Shown: positions 4,671 through 60,645 of the stretch, in pieces
Layout of the letters: each line of letters begins with the position of its first letter
Position numbering within the stretch: position 1 is the stretch's first letter
Origin: Candidatus Saccharimonadota bacterium
GTDB lineage: Bacteria > Patescibacteriota > Saccharimonadia > CAILAD01 > GCA-016700035
Direction: 5' to 3'
Length of the DNA stretch: 64,000 bases
Assembly (NCBI GenBank): GCA_046350755.1
Contig: JAXLZV010000001.1
Coordinates: 160,216 to 224,215, forward strand
The notes under the pieces: model-generated
The model's input: only the letters and a program-made list of their open reading frames with translations
The model's database searches: none
What the model was told of the DNA's origin: nothing
Made by a program: the position numbers and the translations under genes

Positions 4671-4730
4671 AGCTCGAACAGTATACCGGTTTATCAGATA
4701 GGCCGCAAAAATGGCCTAGCCTAGGATTAA

Positions 4731-7959: not shown

Positions 7960-10900
7960 CTACTCGTCATCATCGGTACGAAAACCGGTCCCGACAGGGA
8001 TCAATCGACCGATTATGACATTCTCTTTCAGGCCGCGGAGCTTATCGACTTTGCCTCGCAGACCGGCGCCAATCAACACCTTCATAGTTTCCTGGAATGA
8101 TGCGGCTGACAGCCAGCTATCCGAGCTGATCGAGATCTTTGAGATTGGCATCAACAGCTGCTCGTAAGTCGGAGCAGTCTTGCCAGATTCTTCGGCCGCC
8201 CGTCCGGTTTCCCAGAGGTTGGTCTTGGAAATCACATCGCCAGTGATGAACTCAGTGTCATTTGGCTCTTCGATACGCACTCGGCTGAACATTTGACGAA
8301 TGATCACTTCGATGTGCTTGGATGCAATTGTCTGACCCTGACTCGAGTAGATAGCCTGCACTTCGTCAACGATGTAACGCTCAACGGCTGCTTCGCCCAG
8401 GAGGCGCTGCATGTCTTGGAGATTCACCGAACCGCCAGTCAAGCGCTGACCGACCGTGACGAGATCACCGTGTGCCACCTTGAGGGTAACGTATTCAGGA
8501 ATGACATATTCCTTGATATTGCCACCTTCATGGGTCAATTCAATGCTGCCCTTGGCCACTTTAACCGTTCCGTCTGCACCAGCTTTGACAGTGCGCTTAC
8601 CGGATTCATTCTGAGCCAAGACATCACCTTTACTGACTTCGGCGCCAGTCTTCACAACCGGCTTCATGCCTTCTTTCAGATCATACGTCGTATGCTTCAT
8701 GTCGGCTGGAGCAATCCGTAGCGTCTGCTTGCTATCAGTGCTCTTCAGCGTCACCACGCCATCGATCTCGGCCAGAATAGCTTCACCGCGTGGGTTGCGA
8801 GCCTCAAAGATTTCTTCAACACGTGGCAGACCCTGTGTGATGTCGGCAGCCGAGGCTACTCCACCAGCGTGGAAGGTACGCATAGTGAGCTGCGTGCCCG
8901 GCTCACCGATCGACTGCGCAGCCATAATACCAACCGCTTCGCCCATTTCGACGATTTGACCACGGGCCAGATCAACACCATAACAGTGCTTACAGATACC
9001 CCAGGCGAGCTTACACTTGAGGATCGAGCGAATTGTTACGCTCTCAATCCCAAGCTCAGCGATCGTGCGGGCGGCGTCATCGCTGACGAGTTCACCAGCC
9101 TTCGCGATCGTCTTGCGACCATCCTTCACGTCCTTGGCAAGATAGCGACCGACAATCCATGGAGCCAGCGAGTCTTGTCCAGCGGCTTTCGCCTCAGACA
9201 TGTGGACGGTATAACCCTCGGTATCACCACAGTCGTCAGCCGCGATCATCACGTCCTGAGCCACGTCAACTAAGCGACGGGTCAAATAGCCGGATTCGGC
9301 TGTCTTTAAGGCGGTATCAGTCAGACCCTTACGAGCACCGTGTGAAGAGATAAAGTACTCCAGAATGGACAAGCCTTCTTTGTAGTTACTCTTCACTGGC
9401 AGCTCAATGGTTGAGCCTGTTGAGTTCAGTACCAAGCCTTTCATACCAGCCATCTGGTTCGCCTGACCAACTGTAGCTCGCGCGCCGGATTCGATATCCA
9501 TGGCGAGAGTCGAGCTGTTCGGATCGAGCTCTTGGGTCAACTCGGCCTCAATCTGCTCACCAACTTCTTTCCAGGTTTCTACCGTGCGCTCTTTGCGCTC
9601 ATCGTTGGTAATCAGACCTTGCTGATACTGTGAAGTGATCGAGAGCGTTCGCTTCTCACCCTCTTCAAGTAGCTGCGCCTTTTTCTTCGGCGTCTGCAAG
9701 TCATCCATACCAAGTGAGAAACCAGATTCGGTTGCATACTGATAGCCAATTTCCTTAATCGCATCAGCAACTTTGGCGGTTTCTTCCCCACCGAAGTTTG
9801 TGAATACCTGCGCCAGTACTGACTTCAGCTTTGACTTGGTCATCGCATCATTTTGGTATGGCATACCCTCAGGCAATACTTCGTTGAAGAGTAATCGACC
9901 GATTGATGTATCGACAATTTCGCCATTCATCTTGACCTTCACAGCAGCGCGCAAGTGAACGGCTTTCTGCTGATAGGCCATAACCGCTTCATTGCGATCG
10001 GCAAAGATCTTGCCTTCACCCTGAGCACCGGACTGGAAGTTCGTCATGTAGAAACAACCGAGTACGATTTCGTGTGAAGGGTTAATGATTGGCTCACCAC
10101 TAGCGGGTTTGAGGAGGTTTTTGGAAGCCAACATGATTTCGCGAGCTTCTTTCTGAGCAGCGTCCGACAATGGCACATGGACAGCCATCTGGTCACCGTC
10201 GAAGTCGGCGTTGAAAGCAGCACACACCAACGGATGAAGCTGGATGGCCTTACCTTCGATCAGTACTGGTCGGAAAGCCTGGATCGACAAACGATGCAGA
10301 GTCGGTGCGCGATTCAGCAGTACATACTTACCAGTAATGACTTCTTCGAGCGTATCCCATACTTCGGTTCGGGCCCGTTCGATCATACGTGCTGCACTCT
10401 TCACATTATGTGCATATTCTTTCTCAATCAGTTTCGAGATAACAAATGGCTTAAACAGTTCAAGCGCCATCATCTTCGGCAAACCACATTCGTCGAGCTT
10501 GAGGTGTGGCCCGATTACGATTACTGAGCGACCAGAGTAGTCGACACGCTTCCCTAAGAGGTTTTGGCGGAAACGCCCCTGCTTACCTTTGAGCAAGTCC
10601 GTTAAGCTCTTGAGCTTCTTGCGAGAGCCACCAACTGCGGTCACAGCTCGCTCACGACGAGCATTGTTGTCGATCAAGGCGTCAACCGCTTCCTGTAACA
10701 TGCGCTTTTCATTGCGGCAGATAACTTCTGGAGCTTCGAGATCATAGAGCTTTTTGAGACGGTTGTTGCGGTTGATTACGCGTCGATAGAGATCATTGAG
10801 ATCTGAAGCCGCAAAACGACCACCATCGAGCTGGACCATCGGACGCAAATCGGGTGGAATTACAGGGAGCTCTTGAGTAACCATCCACTCGGCTTTGAGG

Positions 10901-33725: not shown

Positions 33726-33810
33726 ATAACTAGTTTACTACGAACAAAATACGAATGTCTAGTCTAAAAAAATCGGGCCTCACGTACACGCGAGACCCTG
33801 ATTGGGCTGA

Positions 33811-34734
33811 TCATGTATCGACCCACTGCGCCACAAGCCGCTCCATGCTAGACGGACCGTATTGCCAGTAGTTCGCTGCTACCTGTACAGCCGCGGCACC
33901 GCAGGCCAGAAACTCCGAGACATCACTCCCCGATGTGATCCCTCCGACGCCGACCACCGGGATCGGTGAACCGCAGCCGCGCAAGGCTTCGACCCACTGC
34001 AGGACTTGGCCGAGGGCAATCGGCTTGTAGGCTGGTCCGGAAAAGCCACCATACTTGGTCGATAGATATGGCTTGCCATCGTCGATGACGACGGCGTTGG
34101 GGAACGTATTGGTAGAAGCGATATAGAGCCGATTCTCAACCGTGCCAGCAGCCAAGCCAGCAATTCGCTCCGCGACGTGAGCAAGCTCTACCGGATTTGA
34201 ATAAGGTGAGACCTTTAGACCAATCGGCCCCCTCCAGAAGGTGGCGAGATCCAAGAGATGAGTCTCAATCCCTTCGATGTCAAAGCTCAAGATCAGCTTT
34301 TGCTGCCGTTCTGACCAAACGTTCGGACAGCCGAGATTCAGCTCGATTGCATCCAGCTGCCAGTCCTTGAAGTGCTTCAGGAGCCCATACCAACCAACCG
34401 GGTATTCCATCGGAGCAAACGAGAGAATCACCCGCTTGCCAGCTTCGCGAGCCATACCCAGCAGCATCAGCCAACGCGAATGCCAATAGTCGTAGTAATC
34501 AAGGCCAGGATCAGGCAAGCCCATGGCATTGAGCATATAGCCAAGCTCATGGTCGTAATACGAGCGCGGCTCTGGATTTCCTACCCGCTCGCTATACGTA
34601 CCGGTCAGCGACCCAAGCACAATAGCGCTGGCAGACGAGTTGACTGCCGCTTCGAACTCTGCGAGGGTCTTGACCATGCCGGGAGCAACCATGATGGGGT
34701 GCTCAAGTTCCATACCTGCAAGCTTGATCGTCAT
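33811..34734 (-). CDS. pyrD: Dihydroorotate dehydrogenase, class 1A-like (catalytic Cys)
   Basis: RVGNPEPRSYYDHELGYMLNAMGLPDPGLDYY, ELNLGCPNV (Cys base), GGFSGPAYKPIALGQV and VVGVGGITSG all resemble L. lactis PyrDA closely. Confidence 0.8.
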   Translation of the reverse strand: MTIKLAGMELEHPIMVAPGMVKTLAEFEAAVNSSASAIVLGSLTGTYSERVGNPEPRSYYDHELGYMLNAMGLPDPGLDYYDYWHSRWLMLLGMAREAGKRVILSFAPMEYPVGWYGLLKHFKDWQLDAIELNLGCPNVWSERQQKLILSFDIEGIETHLLDLATFWRGPIGLKVSPYSNPVELAHVAERIAGLAAGTVENRLYIASTNTFPNAVVIDDGKPYLSTKYGGFSGPAYKPIALGQVLQWVEALRGCGSPIPVVGVGGITSGSDVSEFLACGAAAVQVAANYWQYGPSSMERLVAQWVDT

Positions 34735-34808
34735 GTTAGCTACTTTCGTAAAAGGTACATTCGGTCCGGGTTATTCTGCAAGACTATTGATAATATCTCA
34801 AGCATAAA

Positions 34809-34838
34809 AAGAACCGGTCTGGAGAAAAAACTCCAAAC
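34809..34838 (-). terminator. Candidate terminator between pyrC and pyrD
   Basis: On the minus strand, CCGGTTTGGAG-TTTTTT-CTCCAGACCGG (10 of 11 bp) is followed by a T-rich run. Confidence 0.4.
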
Positions 34839-34853
34839 CGGCTATGTACCAGA

Positions 34854-35921
34854 TCAATCAGCGTTATTACCAAGATCACTGAACCAGAGAACTGATTCGA
34901 CTTGCCAATCGAGGATCTCGCCGGCCTTCCAAGGCTTCATGCCAAAGTATTCCTCCGGCACTCGCCATGGCTGGCGCCACAGAGTGATGCGGGGCCGCCG
35001 CTCGAGTGAGGGTCCGACCCCATAGAAGCTCGCGCCATTTGCGCACATGAAAGCCAAGAAATTCTCCCACTTTTCCGCACCGCCCTGTGCGTCGAAGTGC
35101 TGCCAGAGCACCGGAATTGCCACTGGGCTCGACCACACGCCGGCCGCTCCACCGAGCTTGCGTTCGATGAGATGTGGCGCGGAATCTGAGCCGAAGAAGA
35201 TCTTCGGTCGCCCAGCCGCCTCGAGGATGATGCGCGCCAAGTAGTCACGATCATCTGGCGTCTTGGCGATCGGCATGCAATTGCAATGCGGATCCTGTAT
35301 GGCATCCATCTGGGTGATGAATGGATGATGAGCCGTGATGCTGGCCGCCACCGTCTCCGGCGACGTCAACACATAATCGAGCATGCGCCGGTCGGACACG
35401 TGTTCGACAACGATCTTGAGCTCAGGGTAGGCGTCCACCAACCACTGAAGATGAGGAATGAAGCCGAATTCTCGCTTTTGAGGATCCGACTCCACGTCAG
35501 GTGTCAGCTCAGCGTGAAGACACAACACCATGCCAACGTCTTGCATCGCAGCCAGAACCTCTGGCTGAAGATCACGCGGCGAAGATAGGCCGCTGCCCGA
35601 GTTGGTCGTACCACCATGCGGATAATACTTGGCGGCAATAGCCAGCGGATGGGCGGCCTCGATATCCGACGCCGTCGTGTCGGGCGTGAGATACAGGGCC
35701 ATCCGCGTCCCAATCGAGTTGAGCGCACGCGAGTGGCCAACCAGCCGACCGTAATAGTCGGCCACCGCCTCGGCGGTCGTCACTGGCGGTGTCAGGTTCG
35801 GCATCACCAGATTGTTCAAGAACTGATGTCCGGATAGATCCACGACCCGTTCCATGAGAATGCCGTCGCGCAGGTGGACGTGCCAATCGTCCGGTATCGG
35901 CATTTCGATTCGAATAGTCAT
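34854..35921 (-). CDS. pyrC: Dihydroorotase, class II (E. coli PyrC type)
   Basis: N-terminal DWHVHLRDG metal-ligand motif; the 355-aa length and overall similarity match type II DHOase. GC is visibly elevated, shown by the many long antisense ORFs here. Confidence 0.85.
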   Translation of the reverse strand: MTIRIEMPIPDDWHVHLRDGILMERVVDLSGHQFLNNLVMPNLTPPVTTAEAVADYYGRLVGHSRALNSIGTRMALYLTPDTTASDIEAAHPLAIAAKYYPHGGTTNSGSGLSSPRDLQPEVLAAMQDVGMVLCLHAELTPDVESDPQKREFGFIPHLQWLVDAYPELKIVVEHVSDRRMLDYVLTSPETVAASITAHHPFITQMDAIQDPHCNCMPIAKTPDDRDYLARIILEAAGRPKIFFGSDSAPHLIERKLGGAAGVWSSPVAIPVLWQHFDAQGGAEKWENFLAFMCANGASFYGVGPSLERRPRITLWRQPWRVPEEYFGMKPWKAGEILDWQVESVLWFSDLGNNAD

Positions 35922-35992
35922 CTCGATGTCTTTCGGTTCGTAGGTACAAGAACTCGCCTATTCTGCCACTTTTTGACTCAATTTTCAAGCAT

Positions 35993-36016
35993 AACAAAAA
36001 CGCCCTGAACGGGCGT
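35993..36016 (-). terminator. Rho-independent terminator after rplS
   Basis: On the minus strand, ACGCCC-GTTCA-GGGCGT is followed by TTTTTGTT. Confidence 0.5.
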
Positions 36017-36035
36017 AGTTGAGTGAGTAGTAAGT

Positions 36036-36650
36036 CTACTTCTTGGCTTGGCTTTTATCGTCTTCGGCGTCAGCCTTATCAAGACCTGATTGCGTTTCGT
36101 CAGCTGGCAAGGCTTTTTCGTCATCGCCATCAGCCGAGTCGGTGTCGGCTTCTACTGCTTTGGTCTCTTCTTTGGCCAGATCTTCGGTTGATTCAACAAC
36201 GGCATCTTCGTTGTCGGTAATATCAGCTTCGTTGGCAGCGACTTCAGCTTCGAGGGCAGCAATCTCATCGGTTGTACGATGATCAGCTTCATTAGCTCCC
36301 GCCTTATCAAAATCCTGCTCAACCAAGCGAGCCTTCTTACCGCGCAAACCACGCATATACGAAAGAAAGGCACGACGCACTTTAGCTCGACGCATGACTT
36401 CAATCTTTTCAACGTTTGGCGAGTGCACAAACCAGCTCTTCTCAACACCAACACCCGAAGCAATCTTGCGTACGGTCAAGTAGGCATTGCCTTCATTCGG
36501 CTTGCGGTAGCGGATAACCAGGCCTTCAAATACCTGAGTACGGGTCTTATTTCCTTCGCGAATAATCTGGTGAACCCGGACGGTGTCACCTGGCTTAATC
36601 ACGGGCAGCTTGGCTTTGAGCTGCGACTTTTGCATAACATTGGCTTGCAT
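36036..36650 (-). CDS. rplS: 50S ribosomal protein L19 with a ~90-aa acidic C-terminal extension
   Basis: The first ~115 aa are canonical L19 (VIKPGDTVRVH...GNKTRTQVFEG...RKIASGVGVEK). Then comes an Asp/Glu/Ala-rich tail ending in KK. Confidence 0.9.
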   Translation of the reverse strand: MQANVMQKSQLKAKLPVIKPGDTVRVHQIIREGNKTRTQVFEGLVIRYRKPNEGNAYLTVRKIASGVGVEKSWFVHSPNVEKIEVMRRAKVRRAFLSYMRGLRGKKARLVEQDFDKAGANEADHRTTDEIAALEAEVAANEADITDNEDAVVESTEDLAKEETKAVEADTDSADGDDEKALPADETQSGLDKADAEDDKSQAKK

Positions 36651-36715
36651 AACTCGAGTATTCTATCAGGTTTACTCCGGAATATCAAGACTACTTACGC
36701 AACATATCCTAATTA

Positions 36716-36744
36716 TTGACATCAAGGATATTTTTTATCATAAT
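36716..36744 (+). promoter_or_regulatory. Sigma-70-type promoter driving high-GC island 1
   Basis: TTGACA (36716..36721), a 17-nt spacer and CATAAT (36739..36744), about 33 nt upstream of the ATG at 36778 with an AAAGG RBS. Confidence 0.5.
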
Positions 36745-36777
36745 ATTGAACCTTGTACCTCTACGAAAGGCTATTGC

Positions 36778-37188
36778 ATGCCTCAGCAGCACGTCACCCA
36801 CATCCGCACCATCAAGCGGATCTACGGCAACGCCTACGTCCGCCTCAACGGCAAGCGACCGGTCATCTTCGGTGATCGGGAGGACGTCGAAGTCCTGAAT
36901 GCCACCGGCATCGATCACCCCATGGAGCTCGAGGAACGCGTTCTCAGCGCCATCGAGCTCCTTCCTGGCCATTCCCAAGAGCCCATGCTCCTTTCCATGT
37001 CCGGTGCCCAGGGCGTTGAGATCACTCGCCACCACGGGGTGAACTACTACCGCATCGAGATCTGTGTGAAGGGCAGGTGGCGGCGCCTGCATGGCACCAA
37101 GGCCCAGCGTGCCATCGAGCACGACCTGGCGCTGGCGAAGAAGGCCAGGGTCGACCTCGCTTCTGATGCGACCGCCCCATCTGTGTGA
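36778..37188 (+). CDS. Small hypothetical protein P1 (136 aa), the first of three tandem related small proteins
   Basis: ATG with RBS; GC-rich codon usage. EICVKGRWRRLHG and AIEHDLALAKKA loosely echo the ECxCG and A..HY..VL..AL segments of P2 and P3. Confidence 0.5.
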   Translation: MPQQHVTHIRTIKRIYGNAYVRLNGKRPVIFGDREDVEVLNATGIDHPMELEERVLSAIELLPGHSQEPMLLSMSGAQGVEITRHHGVNYYRIEICVKGRWRRLHGTKAQRAIEHDLALAKKARVDLASDATAPSV

Positions 37189-37303
37189 CTTCACTAGTCA
37201 CCCGCCCGCAACCATTCATTTGGTTGCGGGCATTGTTATTGATCACGCATGATATCTATGTTTTAATCACGGCAGTACCTACGACCCTCCTGGAGGAATT
37301 GTT

Positions 37304-37603
37304 ATGCCCGGTTTCATCTTCCCTGAAGGACTTTTCATCTGCGGCCACACGGTCAAGCGGCTCATGGTGCCACAGAAGCAAGGCACGGTTCCGCTTATCC
37401 GACACTTCGCGGAGTGCAGTTGTGGCGAGCGCGTCGAAGTCACCGGTGTGATCGGTGACGAGATCACCGCTGAGTATGAACGAGCCCGCCTCACGCATTA
37501 CGTCATGGTTCTCAACGAAGCCCTGACGGAAGCAAGCTTCAGCGGTGGTGGCGAGTTGCTGGCCGGATCAGATGCCGATGACGGCGAACGGCTCGGTGGC
37601 TGA
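37304..37603 (+). CDS. Small hypothetical Cys/His protein P2 (99 aa)
   Basis: ICGHTV...ECSCGERVEV...ARLTHYVMVLNEAL is clearly paralogous to P3. Its TGA stop is followed 1 nt later by the P3 ATG. Confidence 0.55.
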   Translation: MPGFIFPEGLFICGHTVKRLMVPQKQGTVPLIRHFAECSCGERVEVTGVIGDEITAEYERARLTHYVMVLNEALTEASFSGGGELLAGSDADDGERLGG

Positions 37604-37604
37604 G

Positions 37605-38009
37605 ATGGACCTTTCCTTCTCGCTCAATAAGGGTATTCTCGGCCATCGCGTGCACAGCTACGCCTCGGCGACACCAACCGGACGTTGGTTTCGGGTCGAG
37701 CGAATAGCCACTGTCGAATGCAAGTGCGGCGCCAAGCTGGAGCTGGACTGGCGAGACCTACCCGAACACTTCACTACATGGGGCGAGCGGATGGCGCTAG
37801 CACACTACCTGAATGTGCTTCACGCAGCGCTCGCACAAGGCATTCAGGCTACCAGTTGGCCGCCGCCGGAACCAGTTCCGCACTCAGGCGAACTCGGGCG
37901 AGACACACTCGCGCCCGATCACGACTACGAAGCCGATGATGATTTCGGTTTTCCCGATCCAGACGCACCAATCCCACGACGCCAACATCCACCCGGCACC
38001 ATTGGGTAA
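37605..38009 (+). CDS. Small hypothetical Cys/His protein P3 (134 aa), paralog of P2
   Basis: ILGHRV...ECKCGAKLEL...MALAHYLNVLHAAL aligns with P2 motif-for-motif. It has an acidic, proline-rich C-terminal tail. Confidence 0.55.
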   Translation: MDLSFSLNKGILGHRVHSYASATPTGRWFRVERIATVECKCGAKLELDWRDLPEHFTTWGERMALAHYLNVLHAALAQGIQATSWPPPEPVPHSGELGRDTLAPDHDYEADDDFGFPDPDAPIPRRQHPPGTIG

Positions 38010-38018
38010 AAAACTTCA

Positions 38019-38054
38019 CCCGCTACCGAATACAACGGTAGCGGGCTTATTATT
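38019..38054. terminator. Bidirectional terminator between the convergent P3 and gmk-like genes
   Basis: A perfect 10-bp stem CCCGCTACCG-AATACAA-CGGTAGCGGG with T-rich flanks. Confidence 0.55.
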
Positions 38055-38065
38055 ACTGACGAAAA

Positions 38066-38794
38066 TCAGCGGCCGTGATGACCAAGCGTCTCGATCTGAA
38101 CTGCTTCATCCAGACAATCCGACACGATTCCACAGAGCTCATCAGCAGCCTCATCCAGCCGATCGTTGATGACTACATGAGGCCATGTGCCAAGGATCTC
38201 CGGGATCTCCCACCTGGCGCGCATGAGTTTTTGCTCGATGACCGTCTCCTCGTCTCCGCGACCGACCAAGCGCATTTCGAGCGCTCCCAGCATTTCGGTC
38301 TGAACGATGATCGATCCGGCAATGGCGAACCAGTAGCGACCCTGCCCATCGTCAAGCAATGCTAGACGCTGGGCTTCCTGCAGCCGACTCGTTCCGGCTG
38401 GCGTCAGACAGGGCGGCAGGATGCCGATCAGATGAACGGCCGGGAAATTCTCCACCAACATTGACTTGGCGAATAGCTGGAGGGCGCCATTGACATCGAG
38501 ATCTCGCAACTCGATGCCTGGCGTGCTCGGATTGACGTAGGAGCCGTAGTAGCCGCCAGTGGCATTCTGCGAGTGCTCGACGATACTGCCGGCCGCGCGT
38601 TCGCGCATGAAGTCTTCGACCGACAGATAGACGTACTTCGAATTGCCGGCGTCGTCATAGTCGTCTTCGCGCGGTTGGCGCGTCGTCGCCTTGCGGCCGA
38701 CAATCAGTTGCGGGAACTGCTTCATGAGGTACTTCATCAGCGTGTCCTTGCCGACACCTTCCGGCCCAGAGATACAGAAAATGTGCGAAGTCAT
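38066..38794 (-). CDS. gmk: Guanylate kinase homolog with a ~35-aa insertion
   Basis: ISGPEGVGKDTL (P-loop), ATTRQPREDDYDDAGNSKYVYLSVEDF (GMP-binding TTRxPRxGE..G.DY.FVS.E.F), EH...GGYYG, ILPP and RGDEETVIEQKLMRA...VVINDRLDEA all match E. coli Gmk segment-for-segment. It is GC-rich like the rest of island 1. Confidence 0.8.
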   Translation of the reverse strand: MTSHIFCISGPEGVGKDTLMKYLMKQFPQLIVGRKATTRQPREDDYDDAGNSKYVYLSVEDFMRERAAGSIVEHSQNATGGYYGSYVNPSTPGIELRDLDVNGALQLFAKSMLVENFPAVHLIGILPPCLTPAGTSRLQEAQRLALLDDGQGRYWFAIAGSIIVQTEMLGALEMRLVGRGDEETVIEQKLMRARWEIPEILGTWPHVVINDRLDEAADELCGIVSDCLDEAVQIETLGHHGR

Positions 38795-38868
38795 AGCCTT
38801 CTTCCCTCATTTGCGTATAAGGTACGATTACCGGGGATTATATCGGCCCGAAGCGTTTTGGCGCAAGC

Positions 38869-41800
38869 TTACTCGACAAGCAAGGCGTCTTCGGCAACGA
38901 CGTCGGCTAATTGACTTTTGAGCTTTTCGGACACCGCGACTTTGAAGGGTAAGCGAATCTTTTGTCCGGTCGAGGCCAGCTGGACCATAGTTTCAGTTTG
39001 TCCAGGTGCAGCCTGCAGAACCGTCTTGAGTCGGAGCAGCACGACTTGATCTTTGAGATCCTGAAGCGTGATAACAATTCGCGCCGCTTCCTGGGCAGCT
39101 GACGGATCAAGCTCGGGCACTAGAGCTTCACCGGTAGCGATATAGTGCTTGAGTACGCTAGCATCAATCTTCTTGGCTTTGTCAGCCATAACCTTGATGT
39201 CTTCAGTGGTCTTGCCGTCGCGATCTTTAGCGTTGACCTTACCCTGCACCACTACCAGCTGATCTGCCACCCAGAGATCCGGCGTAGCATCATAGGCCCG
39301 TGGGAACACGATCAGCTCGATATCACCTTGTATCGTCTCAAGGCCAACGAACGCCATCGCATCACCTTTCTTGGTCACGATCTTACGAACGGTGGTGATG
39401 ACGCCGCCGACGGTTACCTTTTCACCGTCCATACCTGGCTTAAGCGCTACCGCTGGCGTAGTCTTTTCGCGCAGCCACGCTTCGACTTCGCGCAATGGAT
39501 GACTGGAGAGATACAACCCAAGCAGTTCTTTCTCCCACTGCAAGAATTCTCGCTCCCCAAGGATTTCGCTCGGAGCATCAAGCGGCAATGACGGCACATC
39601 TTCGGTCGCCCCCATGCTGCCAAAGATATCGATCTGGCCCGATAAGGCATTCTTCTGCACTTTACTCATATAGATAACGATCTTATCGAGGTTCGCAAAC
39701 AGCGTGGCGCGATCGCCGATCGAGTCAAAGGCCCCCACCTTCATGAGTGCTTCAATGGCTTTTTTATTAATCTCCCGGGCATCAACCCGCCGGACAAAGT
39801 CCTCAATCGAAGTAAATGACCCACCTTCCTCACGCGCTGCCAGAATGGCGTTGACTGGACCGACTCCGACATTTTTAATCGCCGCGAGACCAAAGCGAAT
39901 CACGTCCTTGCCCTCTCCACTCGAGTCTTTGACGACCGCAAATTCCGCGAATGACTCATTGACATCTGGTGGCAAAACCTCCATGCCCATCTTGCGACAT
40001 TCCGAGACCTCAATAGCCACGCGATCTAAATTGCCATGATCAGAGGTCAACAGAGCCGCCATAAAAGCGGCCGGATAGTGTGCCTTAAGATAGGCGGTTT
40101 GCACGGCGATCAAGGCGTAACAAGCCGCATGGCTCTTATTAAAACAATAGGCCGCAAAGTCTTCGATCGAGCCCCATAGCTGTTCGACAAAACTCCGATC
40201 GGCATCAGAGTGTTTAATCGCCCCTTCAATAAAATCCTTTTTCATCTTGGCGATGACTTCAGGGATCTTCTTGCCAATTCCTTTACGCAAGGTGTCGGCC
40301 TGGCCACCAGTAAAGCCGCAGAGATCTTTTGAAATCTGCATAACCTGCTCTTGATAAACGATGATGCCGTAGGTTTCCTTGAGGGCCGCTTCCATCTTTG
40401 GGTGGTCAAAATGTATGCGCTCCGGGTGGTGCTTACGACCAATGAAGTCTTCGATCCACTGCATTGGACCTGGGCGATACAGCGCCACCATAGCGATAAT
40501 ATCCTCGAAGCGATCAGGCTTGAGTTCGCGAATATAGCGCTTCATGCCAGCTGATTCCAACTGGAAGACACCGGTAGTATCGCCGCGGGCTAAGAGTTCA
40601 TACGTTGCCGTATCATCAATTGGAATCTCCCCGACATCGATCGTCTTGCCATACACACGCTTGATGATGCGCAGGGCATTCTTGATGATCGTCAAGTTCG
40701 ACAGCCCCAAAAAGTCGAACTTCAACAGGCCCAAATCCTCCATGGTTGTGCCAATGTACTGCGTCGACACGCCACCCTTTGAGGCGCGAGTTAATGGCAC
40801 ATACTCCACTAGCGGTTCGGGCGCAATCACCACCCCAGCAGCGTGAGTCCCGGCGTTGCGAATTGTCCCCTCGAGCTGCATAGCGATATCGATCAAGCGC
40901 TTGGTACGCGGATTCGTATCATATTCTTTCTTCAGGTCTGGATCATCGACGATCGACTTCTTGAGCGGAATATGGCGACCCTGAATCGGCGCTGGAATCA
41001 GCTTGGCGATCGCGTCAACCTCACCGTATGGCATCGCGAGCACACGACCCGTATCGCGCACAGCGTTTCGCGCCGCCATTACGCCGAAGGTGATGATCTG
41101 GGCGACTTTCTCCTGCCCATACTTCTCAGTGGCATAGGCGATCACCTCTTCGCGTCGGTCGTCAGCAAAGTCCATGTCGATATCGGGCATAGAGATGCGA
41201 TCTGGATTCAAGAAGCGCTCGAATAGTAGTTCATACTTCAATGGATCCAGATCAGTAATATTCGTCACATAGGCCACGATCGAACCAGCCGCCGAGCCCC
41301 GACCCGGCCCACAGACGATGCCTTGATTCTTTGACCAGTTCAACAGATCAGCAACAATGAGGAAGTAGCCGTCGTAGCCCATGCGCGCAATGACCTCAAG
41401 CTCATACTCGATTCGTTCGACGACTTCTTTCGGCAACTTCGGGCGAGCAGTTTTCTCGCCATAATGACTGATGTCTTCCTTGGGTATGTTGCCGTACCGC
41501 CACATCGCGCCCTGATAGACCAACTCGCGCAAATATTCACGCTCGGTTCGACCTTCTGGCACTTCAAACTTCGGAATCAAAATCTTGCCGAGCTCAATTT
41601 CAAGATTGCATCGCTCAGCGATCTTGACGGTATTCTCGAGTGCATCCAGATCATCGGGAAAACGTTCGGCAATCGAGTCGCCGGAGTGGATCGACAGGTC
41701 TTGGTCAAGCTTGAAGCGGTTCGGGTCCTCAATAGTTGAACCGGTTTGCACGCACAGTAAAATGTCATGGGCGTAGTGTTGCGATTCTTTTGAGTAGTGA

Positions 41801-42489
41801 GCATCACCGGTAACGACCTTGCCGAGTCCCAGCTCCTGGGCAAGCTTTCGTAAGCCAGCGTTTACCTTATCCTGCGGCTCCCAGCCAATATGTGGCTGCA
41901 TTTCCAGATAATAATTATCCTTCCCGAAAGTCTGTGCATACCACTCGGCCGCCAGCTTGGCTTCTGCATAATTATCCGCTAGCAAATGGGTGCCAACCTC
42001 GCCACCAATACAACCGGTAAGGGCAATGAGGCCTTCGTGATACTTCTCGATCAGCTCACGATCGATCCGTGGCTTGTAGTAAAAGCCCTCGAGGTTTGCG
42101 ATAGTAGACAGCTGCATAAGATTCTTGTAGCCTGTTTCATTCATGGCTAGAAGCGTGAGGTGATAGGGACTGCGGTCTTCGCGCGTACTCTTATCAGTGT
42201 GTTTGCGTGGTGCGACGTAGGCCTCCATGCCAATAATCGGCTTAATATCGCGCTTCTTGCACTGTGTGTAGAACTCAATTGCTCCCGACAACGTACCGTG
42301 ATCGGTAATCGCGACTGCTGTTTGGCCCAGCTCTTGTACCCAATCCAGCATATCGGGAATCTTCTGTAAGCCATCGAGTAGCGAATAATGGGTGTGATTA
42401 TGTAGGTGTACAAAAGGTACCGACTGTTTTTTCACAGTCGTAGCCTTCCCCTGCTCTGTCGCCGCCGCACGTGTCATATCACTTACCAT
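38869..42489 (-). CDS. dnaE: DNA polymerase III alpha subunit (DnaE)
   Basis: N-terminal PHP domain (HLHNHTHYSLLDG), the polymerase core (Pol III alpha) and an OB fold at the C-terminus; 1206 aa. Confidence 0.95.
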   Translation of the reverse strand: MVSDMTRAAATEQGKATTVKKQSVPFVHLHNHTHYSLLDGLQKIPDMLDWVQELGQTAVAITDHGTLSGAIEFYTQCKKRDIKPIIGMEAYVAPRKHTDKSTREDRSPYHLTLLAMNETGYKNLMQLSTIANLEGFYYKPRIDRELIEKYHEGLIALTGCIGGEVGTHLLADNYAEAKLAAEWYAQTFGKDNYYLEMQPHIGWEPQDKVNAGLRKLAQELGLGKVVTGDAHYSKESQHYAHDILLCVQTGSTIEDPNRFKLDQDLSIHSGDSIAERFPDDLDALENTVKIAERCNLEIELGKILIPKFEVPEGRTEREYLRELVYQGAMWRYGNIPKEDISHYGEKTARPKLPKEVVERIEYELEVIARMGYDGYFLIVADLLNWSKNQGIVCGPGRGSAAGSIVAYVTNITDLDPLKYELLFERFLNPDRISMPDIDMDFADDRREEVIAYATEKYGQEKVAQIITFGVMAARNAVRDTGRVLAMPYGEVDAIAKLIPAPIQGRHIPLKKSIVDDPDLKKEYDTNPRTKRLIDIAMQLEGTIRNAGTHAAGVVIAPEPLVEYVPLTRASKGGVSTQYIGTTMEDLGLLKFDFLGLSNLTIIKNALRIIKRVYGKTIDVGEIPIDDTATYELLARGDTTGVFQLESAGMKRYIRELKPDRFEDIIAMVALYRPGPMQWIEDFIGRKHHPERIHFDHPKMEAALKETYGIIVYQEQVMQISKDLCGFTGGQADTLRKGIGKKIPEVIAKMKKDFIEGAIKHSDADRSFVEQLWGSIEDFAAYCFNKSHAACYALIAVQTAYLKAHYPAAFMAALLTSDHGNLDRVAIEVSECRKMGMEVLPPDVNESFAEFAVVKDSSGEGKDVIRFGLAAIKNVGVGPVNAILAAREEGGSFTSIEDFVRRVDAREINKKAIEALMKVGAFDSIGDRATLFANLDKIVIYMSKVQKNALSGQIDIFGSMGATEDVPSLPLDAPSEILGEREFLQWEKELLGLYLSSHPLREVEAWLREKTTPAVALKPGMDGEKVTVGGVITTVRKIVTKKGDAMAFVGLETIQGDIELIVFPRAYDATPDLWVADQLVVVQGKVNAKDRDGKTTEDIKVMADKAKKIDASVLKHYIATGEALVPELDPSAAQEAARIVITLQDLKDQVVLLRLKTVLQAAPGQTETMVQLASTGQKIRLPFKVAVSEKLKSQLADVVAEDALLVE

Positions 42490-42604
42490 TGTACGCCAAG
42501 AACGCGAGCGTTTTAATCTTGACTTTTATGCTCATTTATGATATCGTGCGCGAGTTCTATGTAATCGCATGGATAACCTTCACAACCTAGAGAAAGAGGA
42601 CGCC

Positions 42605-43288
42605 ATGAAGTCTTCAGGTGAGTTGCTCCGAGAATATCTCGAGCAGCAGCCCGAGAAGATCAAGGATGTGCGCAATTTCTGTAATGTTGCTAGCAAGACC
42701 GTGAGATCGTGGCTCAAGGGTACCAACCCGAAGGGCATCACACAGTGTAGACTCTTCGTCTACCTACTCGAACAGCAGCTAGCGCCAGCAGAGTTGCTCA
42801 AGACCGAACCCGACATCATTCTCCTTGCCGTTCTGGTGGCTCACGACTATGTGAGCTCTCAAGAGGCCATGAAGGTGATGGGCTCTACCTCCAAGTCTGA
42901 TCAGCAGCTCTGGGGTTGGATCCGTAGCGACACACAGCCGCTGCCCAAAGCCCTAGAGCTCCTGCAAGACTGGCTGGATGCAGTCGATGGCGATCGCTCA
43001 CGAAGACTGATCGCCGCAGAATTTCTCGGTACGACAACCGTGGCGGAGCAATCCCCCGCAAACGTCATTCCGTTGTCGTTCGACTCGAGCGACCAGATCA
43101 TCGAGAATTTGGCAGCATTGTTGTCAGCGGTCTACCCACTCGCCAAGCGCGTGGAAGCCGATGACTTCAGTAATGCCGACCGTGAACGCCTTCGGGCGCT
43201 GATCGGTGAAGACCAGTTCTTCAAGCTCACGAACGCCCTGACCCGCCTCTCCGGCACCAAGGCACGTTCGTACACCCAGTCCATTTAA
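42605..43288 (+). CDS. Hypothetical protein with a putative N-terminal helix-turn-helix
   Basis: An AAAGAGGA RBS lies 6 nt before the ATG at 42605 (alternative ATG at 42569). EYLEQQPEKIKDVRNFCNVASKTVRSWLKG resembles an XRE-type HTH. The C-terminus is unknown. Confidence 0.5.
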   Translation: MKSSGELLREYLEQQPEKIKDVRNFCNVASKTVRSWLKGTNPKGITQCRLFVYLLEQQLAPAELLKTEPDIILLAVLVAHDYVSSQEAMKVMGSTSKSDQQLWGWIRSDTQPLPKALELLQDWLDAVDGDRSRRLIAAEFLGTTTVAEQSPANVIPLSFDSSDQIIENLAALLSAVYPLAKRVEADDFSNADRERLRALIGEDQFFKLTNALTRLSGTKARSYTQSI

Positions 43289-43311
43289 CCCAACACCCCA
43301 AGGAGTACGGC

Positions 43312-45009
43312 ATGACCCGCCGTCGACGTCCCCGTCCAACCCAGGGTGGCCGTAAGGCCCCCGCGACCCCGGCGACACCTCAGCCCATTCGGGATAAGGT
43401 GTCGTTCAACCAGGGCAAGGTCATCATGCACCTTGCCAAGTCGACCTACACCACGTTGATCCAGGTGATCGCTGAGTGCGTCCAGAACGCACTCGACGCC
43501 GGTGCAACCGTCATCGACATCGCTGTCGATGAGAAGCGGCGCAGCATCGTCGTTGCCGACAACGGCGGTGGCGTGACTCTGGAGAAGTTCCACGAGGCCC
43601 TTGGCTCCGTTGGGCATGGGATCAAGGATCCCGGCTCACTCGGACGCTTCGGCCTCGGCCTCATCTCGCCGCTCGATAAGTGCGACTACTACACCTTCAG
43701 CTCCTGGCTTCCCGGCGAGTCGAAGGGGTGGTGCTGGACCTTCCGGGCCGGTGAGATCGAGGCGATGGCCGACGAAGTCGACATCCCTCGGGCTGGTGCC
43801 AAGCGTCACGCTGGCGCTGAGTGGAATACCATCGTGCGCATCCACCGCTACACCTCCGACTCGCAGACGGCCGCAATGACGGCTGAACGCGTCGAGGAAT
43901 TCGTGCAGTCCAAGCTGGGACCCACCATGCGCAAGCGCGGTGTGACCTGCCGGCTGCACTTCGGTGGCCCAGACGGCGAGGTCGTCCAGAAGACGATCAA
44001 GCCGACCGACTTCACCGGTGAGCCTTTCGAGATCACGATCTACACCGAGCCCGACGCGGGCGAAGTGGAGTTCGAGCTCTACCGCGCCCGCAAGACGACC
44101 AAGGGTCGTCAGGGCATGGTGAGTCTCTCGGAAGCGGATGCCCCATACCCGATCACCTTCACCGAGTTCAAGCGGCAGGCTCACGCCTTCCTCGGCGACG
44201 ACGTGAAGAAGGCTCTCAGCTCCGGCTACTTTGAGGGCATCATTCGAGCCAAGAAGGTGGAGCTGCATCCCAACCGCCGCAAGTTCGTCTGGAATGACGC
44301 GGTTGTCGGGCTCTGCATCGCCATCGAACAGTGGTTCGAAGACATCGGGCACAAGCTCTACACCGATGAGCAGGTCCAGGAAGAGGAGGCTCGCCTCCAG
44401 CGCCTGGGCGTGCAGACGCTCGACCGGCTGAAGGATCTCCTCAAGCTGGAAGAGTCGGAACACCTGCGCAAGATCATCGAAAGCCTGCATGTCGGCTCGA
44501 TCGGCAGTGGGCACAACGAGCTCCCCAGCTCGGGGGACATGGATGAGCGTGGTTTGCGCTCTGGTCAGGGCGGCACGGGCAAGCCCCGCAACCGCAATGG
44601 TCAGACCAAGCCACGTGATCCGTCGAAGCCCAAGCAGCCCGAACGGACCGGCGACAAGCCGGGTGTCTCGGTTGGCCCCGAGGGCCAGCACCGCAAGGTG
44701 GTGCGCGACAGCTCGACCGGTATCTCCATCTGCCACGAGATCCTGCCCGGTTCCGACCGACTGTGGGAGATCGACGCAGCGTCGGCGATGATCTACATCA
44801 ACGTGCGTCACCCGGTGTTCTTGCTCGTCGAGCACGCCGACACGTACGTCTTGCAGCTGCAGGAGTGGATCGTGCTGCAGGCGCTGTCGTTGCTGATGTT
44901 CCCGGTCGACAGCCGAGAGCTCCTCCACGACTACGCAGACAGCTACGCTCGCGAGTTCGTGGTGGTCTCGATCCTCGGATCGAGACAGCGCCGCCGCGGT
45001 AGCGTCTGA
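43312..45009 (+). CDS. GHKL/Bergerat-fold ATPase (MORC / MutL-N / HATPase_c_3-like) with an unknown C-terminal region
   Basis: AAGGAG RBS. The N-box is IAECVQNALDAGAT, the G1 box is VADNGGGVT and the G2 box is LGRFGLGLISP. Downstream is a Gly/Lys/Pro/Arg-rich low-complexity linker, then a C-terminal domain of unknown function. Confidence 0.7.
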   Translation: MTRRRRPRPTQGGRKAPATPATPQPIRDKVSFNQGKVIMHLAKSTYTTLIQVIAECVQNALDAGATVIDIAVDEKRRSIVVADNGGGVTLEKFHEALGSVGHGIKDPGSLGRFGLGLISPLDKCDYYTFSSWLPGESKGWCWTFRAGEIEAMADEVDIPRAGAKRHAGAEWNTIVRIHRYTSDSQTAAMTAERVEEFVQSKLGPTMRKRGVTCRLHFGGPDGEVVQKTIKPTDFTGEPFEITIYTEPDAGEVEFELYRARKTTKGRQGMVSLSEADAPYPITFTEFKRQAHAFLGDDVKKALSSGYFEGIIRAKKVELHPNRRKFVWNDAVVGLCIAIEQWFEDIGHKLYTDEQVQEEEARLQRLGVQTLDRLKDLLKLEESEHLRKIIESLHVGSIGSGHNELPSSGDMDERGLRSGQGGTGKPRNRNGQTKPRDPSKPKQPERTGDKPGVSVGPEGQHRKVVRDSSTGISICHEILPGSDRLWEIDAASAMIYINVRHPVFLLVEHADTYVLQLQEWIVLQALSLLMFPVDSRELLHDYADSYAREFVVVSILGSRQRRRGSV

Positions 45010-45030
45010 TCCTTTCTCTCTAGTTGTTTC

Positions 45031-45062
45031 GCCGGAGCCCTTTGGGCTCCGGTTTTCTTTTT
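45031..45062 (+). terminator. Strong rho-independent terminator after the GHKL ATPase gene
   Basis: GCCGGAGCCC-TTT-GGGCTCCGG followed by TTTTCTTTTT. Confidence 0.65.
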
Positions 45063-45081
45063 ATTCAGCGTCATGAATCTA

Positions 45082-45110
45082 TTGACTTTAAACCCTTATG
45101 ATTGTAATAT
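45082..45110 (+). promoter_or_regulatory. Candidate sigma-70 promoter for the 45155..45835 gene
   Basis: TTGACT, a 17-nt spacer and TAATAT, with an AAGGAG RBS before the GTG at 45155. Confidence 0.4.
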
Positions 45111-45154
45111 ATTTTTACTGTTCGCCCGAACATTCGTACCTTACAAGGAGCACT

Positions 45155-45835
45155 GTGGATACACCAACCGAACCCACCAAACGACAGCCGGGAGCCGCAT
45201 CGACGCGCTCCTGCAGCCTGAACGAAGCTCTGTCGAGCTTCTATGCCCTCAAGGGATGGCTCAGACGGCGCCAGCTCGATGACTGGCTGCCACAGCTCGC
45301 CATCGTCTGGACCGACCGCAACGGCCATGCCGTTCTGGCAATCCGTGGCGACAACGCCATGGGCCCTGCACCGCAGGATGCCAATCAGGCGGCCCAAGCC
45401 GCATTGCGCCCGCACTGCATCGAGCAGGGAGCTGCCACCATTCAGACAGCCGCCAAGCAGGTGCTGGGGGCAGTTGGGGTCTACGGACGCAGTCCAGCCG
45501 ACAACCATCTCGTCGCCTGCCTGGCAGCGGAGTTGGTCTTCGAGCCAGATATGCCAGCAGAACTCCTTGAGGTCTGCGTCGAGGAGCGCTTCCAGCAAGA
45601 CGGCCTCGAAGTCCCAGACGTGCCATTGGCGGTCTCGCCAGGTGTGTCATCATTCGCAGGTTTGCAAGCGGTGATGGCTGGAGCTGGCGTGTTGAGGCTC
45701 TTGCCTGGCCAAACCTACGGCTGGCCGAGCCAGCTCGATCCGCCGCTGACGCAACCACAAGCCGGTGTCAGACTCATCACCGAGCGTGACATCCCCGGCC
45801 ACGTACCGGGGCATGGTGGTGGACTCTTCGGCTGA
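45155..45835 (+). CDS. Hypothetical GC-rich protein (last gene of island 2)
   Basis: A GTG start 5 nt after the AAGGAG RBS; Ala/Gly/Pro-rich with no recognisable motif. The ORF-track start at 45098 runs into the AT-rich promoter and is unlikely. Confidence 0.45.
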   Translation: MDTPTEPTKRQPGAASTRSCSLNEALSSFYALKGWLRRRQLDDWLPQLAIVWTDRNGHAVLAIRGDNAMGPAPQDANQAAQAALRPHCIEQGAATIQTAAKQVLGAVGVYGRSPADNHLVACLAAELVFEPDMPAELLEVCVEERFQQDGLEVPDVPLAVSPGVSSFAGLQAVMAGAGVLRLLPGQTYGWPSQLDPPLTQPQAGVRLITERDIPGHVPGHGGGLFG

Positions 45836-45904
45836 TCATTCTCACACAACCTCTCAGGGCGGGTACCATCACGGTACTCGCCCCTCATTATGTCTTTAAT
45901 AAAC

Positions 45905-60513: not shown

Positions 60514-60640
60514 AGGCGGCTATCTGGTATCTCTCCTGGAATCAACTAGGAAACACTTATCTGATACTAATCTGTCCAACAGATAGCAGATAGCCGTCTT
60601 CACCTGAAGGCGCGTCCACTCTGGATCCGCCCTAGGAGGG
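60514..60640 (+). promoter_or_regulatory. Structured ~130-nt 5' leader with nested inverted repeats and five TATCTG/CAGATA hexamer copies; candidate riboregulator or MITE-like insert
   Basis: CGGCTATCTG (60517..60526) pairs with CAGATAGCCG (60587..60596), and GTATC pairs with GATAC inside it. CAGATAG is tandemly duplicated. A CACC segment can pair with the GGTG of the AGGAGGGTG RBS region. Confidence 0.35.
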
Positions 60641-60645
60641 TGAAA

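Follow-up and report, generated by a model that had tools for sequence, protein, structure and literature searches.

Introduction

What does the GC-rich block beside dnaE in this Patescibacteria genome encode, and which of its genes belong together? An earlier note on the 64-kb window, the whole stretch of 64,000 nucleotides analysed here, had proposed an undescribed three-gene defence or DNA-surveillance cassette built around a GHKL ATPase. ATPases of the GHKL+S5 type (MutL, MORC, Hsp90 and the subunits of type II topoisomerases) serve as central switches in the cell, while experiments have so far revealed little about the MORC-like members in prokaryotes. Also, Patescibacteria constitute a large radiation of bacteria with a mostly obscure biology, and the family of the ATPase described here, which comprises at least 454 clusters at 50% identity, is nearly confined to them. 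We found nothing in the literature on this family in Patescibacteria, and the libraries and source records that were checked annotate the ATPase only as 'ATP-binding protein' or 'hypothetical protein'.

The block beside dnaE as an insertion

The open reading frames, ribosome-binding sites, Bergerat motifs, terminator and promoter-like sites described earlier are all present in the window (Table 1). Genes A, B and C are oriented opposite to both flanking genes. In the relatives L057, L058, L064, L069, L079, L083 and L087, DUF5665 and dnaE are co-directional and lie 38-141 bp apart, while here the gap is 3,419 bp; at L055 the same site is filled with a different insert of 1.4 kb. Since DUF5665 abuts dnaE in close relatives, the GC-rich block represents DNA inserted at a junction that varies. 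No terminal repeats were found flanking the block, and a search of its boundaries for transposon-like ends or target-site duplications found none.

The core of the promoter-like site of the A-B operon is kept in two syntenic relatives, L001 and L002, even though they share only about 52-54% identity with the window in protein A. No palindromic operator was found in the window, L001 or L002. Inverted repeats are enriched upstream of the operon across loci (p=2e-5), an enrichment confounded by the terminators of the preceding genes and lacking a consensus, and for these reasons they were dropped as a candidate operator. At the terminator, a sub-threshold Rfam match to ncS16 corresponds to the hairpin itself.

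Table 1. Features of the block beside dnaE, in window coordinates.
Feature	Position	Strand	Basis or remark
dnaE	38869..42489	-	Adjoins the block
Inserted block (A+B+C)	42490..45904		From dnaE start codon to DUF5665 stop codon
Promoter-like site of the A-B operon	42519..42547	+	Consensus scan: TTGACT, 17 nt, TATCGT, upstream TG; overlaps TATGATAT
Gene A, 227 aa	42605..43288	+	ATG preceded by AAGAGG; maximal ORF start 42569
Gene B, 565 aa	43312..45009	+	ATG preceded by AAGGAG
B, Bergerat (GHKL) ATP-binding domain, residues ~26-180	43387..43851	+	N-box, G1, G2
B, S5-fold transducer, residues ~184-325	43861..44286	+	Alignments to MutL and MORC3 GHKL+S5 modules
B, helical stalk (long helix pair, 329-391) and K/R/G/P-rich linker (~392-450)	44296..44661	+	Secondary structure; low pLDDT at 399-450
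B, C-terminal alpha/beta domain, residues 451-565, with stop	44662..45009	+	Conserved GPxGxxR (455-461), W485, N497, H500
Intrinsic terminator, end of A-B transcript	45031..45062	+	10-bp stem with 8 G-C pairs, 3-nt loop, T-run (stem and T-run at 45031..45053)
Gene C with its own promoter-like site (45082..45110)	45082..45835	+	GTG at 45155 preceded by AAGGAG; maximal ORF start 45098
DUF5665/YtxH/MscS/gatB run		-	Other flank of the block

The conserved unit is a gene pair

An ORF of the A family stands immediately upstream of B, adjacent and co-oriented, in all 45 distinct loci, and the sequences of A and B co-vary. This part of the expected co-occurrence stood; the part that concerned C did not, as C accompanies the pair in only 2 of the 45 loci. 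Its sole homolog is found in L001, with 40% identity, and in the syntenic relative L002/L054 an unrelated 150-aa ORF occupies its place. The earlier reading, in which A, B and C form one defence cassette, drew on their adjacency, their common orientation and the enrichment in GC of all three genes in the window and L001, but a strong terminator and a separate promoter-like site stand between B and C, and C is missing from 43 loci. The co-occurrence data largely refute the three-gene model, which we regard as barely credible. C is lineage-specific cargo of the insertion and lies outside the conserved A-B module. Its Pfam match to HbpS-like proteins falls below the cut-off (E=1.2e-3) and its best three PDB profile matches, all of the GlcG/HbpS/EfgA family, have weak E-values (0.035-0.3), so that C is probably a divergent GlcG/HbpS/EfgA-like (DUF336) protein.

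Nearly all A-B loci belong to Patescibacteria (CPR bacteria), and nearly all of the best 150 cluster representatives of B measure 520-630 aa and match end to end. The pair was found in few species genomes and is absent from close relatives with the same synteny, which indicates that it is dispensable. When four genes on each side were compared over the 45 loci, the only recurrent neighbours were A and a small ORF, Z, in 11 loci; within that range no nuclease, methylase, helicase, restriction-modification (R-M) or defence family recurred. The surroundings are of a housekeeping kind (groEL, pgi, mraZ, ribosomal proteins, dnaE) and not defence islands. We searched viral contigs, phages and plasmids for the pair and found no copy, and the viral structure library has only the GHKL+S5 module in common with B.

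Gene B encodes a GHKL+S5 ATPase with an altered catalytic site

The product of B carries the motifs ECVQNALDAGAT, DNGGG and GRFGLGLIS, which correspond to an N-box (E55-x-x-Q58-N59-x-x-D62), a G1 box (D83-x-G85-x-G87) and a G2 box (G111-x-x-G114-x-G116) whose residues show 96-100% conservation among 190 members. The catalytic Glu, the Mg-binding Asn, the DxGxG and GxxGxG motifs and the Bergerat fold of the GHKL superfamily are all found. The view of B as a stand-alone MutL/MORC-type GHKL protein is borne out by Pfam HATPase_c_3, which scores 51.8 bits over residues 49-154 (cut-off 25), and by structure matches to MutL-NTD and MORC3. The structure search aligned 256-311 residues of B to two-domain ATPase modules (256-271 for MutL and MORC3), the best fold matches being MutL-NTD, PMS1, MLH1 and MORC2/3. 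Matches to ribosomal S9 and GHMP kinases mark the S5 fold, and this second domain carries a family motif, S304-G-x-F-E-G309, 12 residues and R322-x-x-F325, with R322 (99% conserved) as the putative basic residue of the transducer; B thus falls in the GHKL+S5 subgroup.

A Gln precedes the Mg-binding Asn in 187 of 187 members with a detected N-box pattern (189 checked), and Gln58 of B aligns to E32 of MutL. This second acidic residue beside the Mg-binding Asn (aqMutL E32) is conserved in MutL, GyrB and MORC (PMC13614785). With Gln58 in place of that acid, B is predicted to hydrolyse ATP slowly, which would make it a long-lived ATP-bound switch and not a fast motor. In this sense, the B family constitutes a natural experiment, with the equivalent of MutL E32Q and an obligate HTH partner in every member.

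The linker was described beforehand as rich in K, R, P and G, and the count agrees: 11 K/R, 9 G and 7 P among the 52 residues 399-450, with conserved positions at H401 and P450. Behind the linker lies an unplaced C-terminal domain. Neither A nor B showed a nuclease, methylase, helicase or any further effector domain.

Gene A encodes an XRE-type partner

Profile and fold evidence backs the HTH that had been proposed in A: the protein shows the five-helix HTH of Cro/C1 type and is XRE/lambda-repressor-like. The HTH occupies residues ~1-60 of a helical stretch, some 130 residues long, that is modelled with confidence. Residues 137-160 form a disordered linker, and the C-terminal part beyond it is helical and conserved. 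These C-terminal helices fold poorly when modelled alone. The model of A was built on 9 sequences, and a profile search for more homologs gave only two extra.

We compared the pair with others in which an XRE repressor accompanies an enzyme under its regulation, namely R-M systems with their C-proteins, DdrO-IrrE, ImmR-ImmA, CapH-CapP and HipB-HipA. A exceeds C-proteins 3-4 times in size and, unlike them, has its own conserved C-terminal domain. With regard to the protease partners, the C-terminal domain of B lacks HExxH (found in 1 of 190 members), which indicates that B is not a protease; IrrE, ImmA and CapP are absent among the matches listed. Another reading, judged here by the layout of the operon and by an antitoxin-like design in A, is a type II toxin-antitoxin-like addiction or abortive-infection pair, where antitoxin A would autorepress the operon and neutralise B through a C-terminal region disordered until bound, and freed B would poison DNA transactions. 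We consider this unlikely: with its 565 aa and three or four domains B is far above typical toxin size, A exceeds most antitoxins, and no GHKL+S5 toxin family was found in the libraries and papers that were consulted.

Comparison with MutL, MORC, Hsp90 and defence ATPases

Neither profiles nor structures gave a housekeeping MutL, GyrB or Hsp90 that corresponds to B from end to end, in line with the earlier note. A close parallel is with MutL/MLH/PMS, which share the GHKL+S5 fold and a layout of ATPase, flexible linker and C-terminal domain. However, the endonuclease motif DQHA(X)2E(X)4E occurs in 0 of 190 members of B, the MutL acid is replaced by the invariant Gln, and B reaches 16-33 bits on the MutL equivalogs of NCBIfam, where the cut-offs are 180-937. 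The partner of MutL is MutS and that of B is an XRE HTH protein, and the A-B pair is accessory and not core; neither mutS nor mutL was recognised among the scanned ORFs of the window. These data bear on a second reading, in which B would be a lineage-specific factor of DNA metabolism with a housekeeping-like role, for instance a repair matchmaker like MutL or a clamp that compacts the nucleoid like MORC, with A as its DNA-targeting adaptor. The structural matches, the MutL-like layout, the housekeeping contexts and the uniform, strongly conserved architecture fit such a role, but the pair is dispensable and is carried by few species genomes, the MutL endonuclease motif is lacking, the second acid is replaced and the MutL profile scores are far below their cut-offs, which leaves this reading doubtful.

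The MORC-specific S5 motif is GhXhhpXXRhl, and paraMORC1-5 have a conserved R-M neighbourhood with an SF-II helicase, a DNA methylase, or a Vsr/RE-fold or HNH nuclease (Iyer, Abhiman and Aravind 2008, PMC2292703). That motif is absent from B of the window and a regular expression found it somewhere in 2 of 189 members, as chance could give; the B family has instead SGxFEG, 12 residues and RxxF. None of the R-M genes linked to paraMORC1-5 (SF-II helicase, methylase, Vsr/RE-fold, HNH) recurs among the four genes on each side at the 45 A-B loci. B further differs from prokaryotic MORC proteins in its obligate XRE HTH partner and its near confinement to Patescibacteria.

The likeness of B to Hsp90 is structural and at the level of the GHKL+S5 module. 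A further reading is a protein-directed GHKL function, B being an Hsp90-like chaperone or an anti-sigma-type kinase that controls A as a transcription factor. We find this very unlikely, since the HtpG models of NCBIfam give 12.8-16.4 bits on B against cut-offs of 371-455, the longest low-rmsd alignments are those to the MutL and MORC GHKL+S5 modules, groEL adjoins the pair in only 4 of 45 loci, from related lineages, and the basic linker hints at contact with nucleic acid.

In the defence libraries, the nearest matches are the GHKL domains of Tiamat (TmtA), MZA (MzaB) and BbrUII/HgiDII-type restriction enzymes. The TmtA model (PDLC03968) matches 43 of 49 B members (best E=3.8e-13), MzaB matches 10 of 49, and BbrUII gives E=2.6e-8. 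For B of the window, the one member for which the matched range is shown, the similarity covers about 65-80 residues of the Bergerat fold; with TmtA, it spans residues 41-117 against profile positions 67-144 of 1,486. NCBIfam scores are 19.2 bits for MzaB (cut-off 850) and 32.9 for BbrUII (cut-off 550). No partner genes of these systems lie beside B, and no nuclease domain was detected in it. In agreement with the note, PADLOC, NCBIfam, Pfam and PHROGs contain no named system with this architecture. The defence label that the note proposed found no direct backing: an effector domain is absent from the pair, defence, R-M and helicase genes do not recur beside it, and phages and plasmids yielded no copies.

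A possible DNA clamp with an HTH adaptor

The explanation that we tentatively prefer is that A-B is an obligate, accessory and relocatable operon, nearly confined to Patescibacteria, encoding a DNA-clamp ATPase and its HTH adaptor, with a role in genome conflict. A would bind DNA through its N-terminal HTH, probably at its own promoter too, and its C-terminal helices would hold or recruit B. B may dimerise constitutively by way of the stalk and the C-terminal domain; once ATP is bound, the GHKL domains at the N-terminus would shut around DNA like a clamp, in the manner of MutL, MORC and Hsp90, with the basic linker making DNA contacts and Gln58 prolonging the ATP-bound state. The most likely role of the pair would be the surveillance, silencing or exclusion of foreign DNA, or addiction-like self-maintenance, and we consider core housekeeping less likely. 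Defence or conflict is a plausible role. The insertion at a variable junction and the presence/absence polymorphism are compatible with defence and do not prove it, and an architecture as uniform as this one is unusual among defence genes, which argues against a conflict role. A conflict system of this kind would add to the known immunity of reduced episymbionts, while a DNA-organising clamp would constitute the bacterial counterpart of a MORC protein that a sequence-specific adaptor brings to its site.

Base composition of the pair

The block had been described as high in GC, and the measured value is 0.62-0.63 at 43-45 kb against about 0.51 around it. By gene, GC is 0.553 in A, 0.634 in B and 0.618 in C, compared with 0.521 in dnaE and 0.513 in gatB, and the GC3 of B (0.825) is the highest among 47 long ORFs of the window (z=4.1). 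In 36 of 38 loci the GC3 of B exceeds that of its neighbours, and the A-B pair is likewise enriched in GC3 relative to its host in 36 of 38, with an average excess of +0.17 over 38 genomes and an offset that follows host GC. Because the excess recurs and tracks the host, high GC is not simply a sign of recent foreign origin; this unusual signature calls for caution before a GC island is taken as recent foreign DNA.

Several candidate causes were rejected. Amino-acid composition does not account for the high GC, as codon positions 1 and 2 have a GC near that of the neighbours. High expression was discarded given that groEL beside the pair in L014 has a GC3 of 0.53 against 0.91 for B, and that the ribosomal-protein and recA neighbours in L005 are all lower than B. 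A selected DNA motif in B was discarded as well, the top pooled 6-mer score (3.2 among 2,080 k-mers, against synonymous shuffles) being at chance level.

It is possible, if rather unlikely, that A-B is a new immune or DNA-surveillance system largely specific to Patescibacteria, where the sequence-reading XRE partner would load a slowly hydrolysing MutL/MORC-like ATP clamp, catalytically set up like Hsp90 and equipped with a novel C-terminal domain, on foreign or aberrant DNA, and whose synonymous sites would be held GC-rich in every host. Biased gene conversion driven by recombination, or a need to avoid self-targeting, might keep these sites so. Among ultra-small symbiotic bacteria, a conflict system dedicated in this way would be a rarity.

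B also contains a 430-aa antisense ORF (43636..44928, minus strand), which was rejected as a gene: its length is as in synonymous-codon shuffles in 9 of 9 loci (p 0.25-1.0). Across loci, the antisense frame has a median of 3 stops per 500 codons, and the depletion of CTA and TCA in B mostly reflects a general preference for G/C-ending codons in the Leu and Ser families.

The conserved unit beside dnaE

The window carries, next to dnaE, three ORFs on the + strand: A, a protein of XRE type; B, an ATPase of the GHKL+S5 kind; and C (table below). All the features that the earlier note had listed here (ORFs, motifs, regulatory signals and raised GC) were borne out by the analysis. Its grouping of the three genes as one cassette was wrong; the conserved unit consists of two genes, A and B. 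A homolog of C occurs only in the closest syntenic relative, and a terminator and a separate promoter precede the gene, so that C is independent cargo; in the next relative (contig L002) the position of C is occupied by an unrelated ORF of 150 aa. A functional module made of A, B and C together is thus very improbable.

Features of the window discussed in the text
Feature	Position	Strand	Remark
dnaE	38869..42489	-	bounds block on one side
DUF5665, YtxH, small membrane ORF, MscS, gatB, gatA		-	run on other side of block
Promoter-like site	42519..42547	+	
A	42569/42605..43288	+	ORF
RBS of A	ahead of 42605 ATG	+	AAGAGG
B	43312..45009	+	ORF, 565 aa
RBS of B	ahead of 43312 ATG	+	AAGGAG
Terminator hairpin	45031..45053	+	10-bp stem, 8 G-C pairs, T-run
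Second promoter-like site	45082..45110	+	
C	45098/45155..45835	+	ORF; GTG at 45155
RBS of C	ahead of 45155 GTG	+	AAGGAG
pyrD	33811..34734		in second raised-GC patch
Amidohydrolase, may be dihydroorotase	34854..35921		in second raised-GC patch
154-aa ORF, unknown	37545..38009		GC 0.61; in second raised-GC patch
242-aa protein	38066..38794		N-terminal half alone matches guanylate kinase; in second raised-GC patch

A sub-threshold match to the Burkholderia sRNA ncS16 of Rfam (window 44986-45061; 31 bits, gathering score 48) falls at the terminator hairpin of A-B; in all likelihood it is an artefact of that terminator.

B has 58 close clusters, and an exhaustive profile search (E<=1e-30) gave a B family of 454 clusters at 50% identity. 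Its length is uniform; nearly all of the best 150 of the 454 measure 520-630 aa and align over their whole length. Exact-protein look-ups and a scan of species-representative genomes provided 45 distinct loci, and in all 45 B is directly preceded, on its own strand, by an ORF of the A family (hmmsearch E 1e-7 to 1e-90). Where genes had been called (nine loci), the spacing goes from a 4-bp overlap up to 62 nt. Pairwise identities of A and of B correlate (r=0.75), A evolving faster (median identity 23% vs 32%). A is an obligate, co-varying XRE-HTH partner of B. The two might be a toxin-antitoxin-like pair, a reading that we consider unlikely.

Clustering of the genes within four positions of A-B in the 45 loci returned no other recurrent neighbour except a small conserved ORF, Z (~85-110 aa), which in 11 loci (L005:4930-5247, L008:4833-5198, L010:4141-4440 and eight others) lies against the start of A or overlaps with it. 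Z has the motif SITFSL..W.G....GQVV.L....F..GWRA..A.PV and no Pfam match, and Z-A-B is an optional operon, not present in the lineage of the window.

Protein architecture and relation to known GHKL families

The Bergerat motifs that the earlier note had quoted are found in B, and Pfam HATPase_c_3 matches residues 49-154 with 51.8 bits (cut-off 25). Of this fold, sequence libraries pick up the first part only. B possesses a complete GHKL+S5-type ATP-binding and hydrolysis site. Among 190 diverse members, conservation reaches 90-100% in the ATP site (E55, N59, D62, D83, G85, G87, G111-G116) and in the S5 domain (SGxFEG, 12 residues, R322xxF); in the C-terminal part P450, R461, N497 and H500 are conserved at >=90% and H401, G455, P456, G458 and W485 at 83-88%. 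None of these 190 members contains the MutL endonuclease motif, and HExxH appears in only one. Fold matches lower in the list were SMCHD1, Hsp90/TRAP1, PMS1, MLH1, ParE and Topo VI-B. That B is a GHKL protein directed at proteins we regard as quite improbable.

At its N-terminus A carries an HTH of the XRE/lambda-repressor type (PDB profile matches: 3op9, E=7.5e-4; 2kpj, E=6e-3), and Pfam HTH_3 and HTH_31 match weakly in single members of the A family. The model of A is confident over residues 1-130, followed by a disordered linker and a C-terminal helical region, which is conserved yet poorly modelled when alone. C shows a weak but mutually consistent likeness to the GlcG/HbpS/EfgA (DUF336) family.

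By analogy, B would work like the MutL/MORC class. By every membership criterion tested, it falls outside MutL, MORC, paraMORC1-5, TmtA/MzaB/BbrUII and HtpG. Unlike MutL, it lacks the second catalytic acid and the endonuclease motif, and the MutL model scores fail; the MORC motif GhXhhpXXRhl is missing; the R-M, helicase or nuclease neighbourhoods that define paraMORC1-5 are missing around A-B; with Tiamat TmtA, MzaB and BbrUII the window protein shares ~65-80 residues of the GHKL domain and no more; and HtpG model scores are far under the cut-offs. Source annotations of B read just 'ATP-binding protein' or 'hypothetical protein', and our literature search retrieved no paper tying such a family to Patescibacteria. 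A-B is a real, well-defined, uncharacterised two-gene module of the GHKL+S5 (MutL/MORC-like) kind, in which the XRE partner is obligate and the base composition peculiar.

Proposed mechanism

A feature specific to the family is the residue before the Mg-binding Asn of B, which is Gln in all 187 members in which the N-box pattern was found and aligns to MutL E32. MutL, GyrB and MORC have an acidic residue here and Hsp90 has Ser, and the aqMutL E32Q substitution lowers kcat/Km from 77 to 0.48 M-1 s-1 (PMC13614785). Because of this correspondence, B is predicted to hydrolyse ATP slowly and to act as a switch. In analogy with MutL, MORC and Hsp90, the stalk and C-terminal domain would keep B dimeric, ATP would close the N-terminal domains into a clamp and the basic linker may touch DNA. 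A would bind DNA, its C-terminal helices possibly tethering or restraining B, and probably autoregulates the operon. We tentatively place A-B in genome conflict (defence or surveillance); the defence label of the earlier note is plausible and unproven.

Insertion at the DUF5665/dnaE junction

The junction was compared in metagenome loci for which the dnaE N-terminus served as anchor and which were screened for flanking markers. In seven relatives (dnaE 53-66% identical) DUF5665 and dnaE are co-directional and 38-141 bp apart, whereas the gap is 3,419 bp with A, B and C in the window and the identical contig L053, and 4,266 bp with A and B in L054, of the L002 lineage. Contig L055 (dnaE 79% identical) keeps the whole gatB-to-DUF5665 run with a different insert of ~1.4 kb. 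Thus, the junction is variable, and A-B was inserted there in an ancestor of the window and its syntenic relatives L001 and L002, in opposite orientation to the flanking genes. The L055 insert indicates that the junction acts as a hotspot at which GC-enriched cargo varies. Cargo beside A-B turns over among close relatives, and A-B itself is accessory. No terminal repeats or target-site duplications were visible at the block edges.

The L055 insert (7622-9003) consists of three small ORFs on the opposite strand instead of A-B-C, one of which (8539..8868; GC3 0.85) has a Flp-pilin-like N-terminus (TLVEYALLVALIAVV). In L002, two other ORFs flank A-B: one of 223 aa without family (4384-5055, GC3 0.89), between dnaE and A, and the 150-aa ORF (7846-8298) at the place of C.

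Distribution

Record titles of A-B are almost all from Patescibacteria (Saccharibacteria/Saccharimonadia, Paceibacterota, Minisyncoccia, Sung-, Taylor- and Vogelbacteria, Peribacteria, Parcubacteria). Five loci (L016, L027, L042, L047, L052) are labelled Gammaproteobacteria, Thermotogae or Acidobacteriaceae; as these are MAG contigs of 3.6-21.6 kb, mis-binning of Patescibacteria DNA is probable. Should the labels be correct, the family reaches past this group. A scan with a single strict peptide pattern found A-B in at least 42 of 185,579 species, an undercount since the pattern matches just 43% of known members; A-B is clearly not universal. Its neighbourhoods vary by lineage and are made up of housekeeping genes, and A-B might also be a housekeeping-like DNA factor, which seems to us improbable. 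Viral contigs, phages and plasmids yielded no member of the B family, and the viral structure library has the GHKL+S5 module alone in common with B.

The GC3 anomaly

GC in the window rises to 0.62-0.63 at 43-45 kb vs ~0.51 on both sides (A 0.553, B 0.634 and C 0.618 vs dnaE 0.521 and gatB 0.513), in a core chromosomal region with rpoBC, clpB, recG, ligA, gatCAB and L19. GC3 of B (0.825) is the top value among 47 long ORFs of the window (z=4.1). The raised GC is real but not simply a sign of foreign origin, since the GC3 excess is broader. GC3 of B exceeds the neighbour mean in 36 of 38 loci (average +0.17; Wilcoxon p=7e-11), being the single highest in 26, and its regression on host GC3 (slope 0.93, intercept +0.21) denotes an offset that follows the host. 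The step is often limited exactly to A and B (in locus L033, 0.45 -> 0.83, 0.82 -> 0.47), codon positions 1 and 2 have near-normal GC, and groEL and ribosomal genes near A-B are not elevated.

In the three insertion-sharing lineages, 4-fold sites of flanking genes and A are near saturation (excess identity -0.04 to 0.23, most <=0.10) and GC3 stays high in each; the bias is thus sustained in situ. There are also hints of a site-specific constraint on B synonymous sites besides the GC3 excess; in the comparison of the window with L001 and L002, 4-fold excess identity of B is 0.21-0.25, above most values for gatB, MscS, dnaE and A, although the protein identity of B is lower. An overlapping antisense gene and a selected DNA motif were tested as sources of the excess and rejected. 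Other junction cargo is GC3-enriched too (C 0.67, the L002 223-aa ORF, L055 ORFs 0.62-0.85), which is compatible with biased gene conversion linked to recombination or with a mobile gene pool richer in GC.

Other features of the window

At 60520-61662, just upstream of a tRNA-Val/Ala/Val cluster, two long ORFs overlap on opposite strands (334 aa, -; 340 aa, +), neither with a Pfam match; in GC3 (0.77) the + ORF ranks second in the window. A second raised-GC patch (0.57-0.60) extends over 33000-38800 and includes pyrD and the amidohydrolase. To our knowledge, de novo pyrimidine genes are unusual in Saccharibacteria-like genomes.
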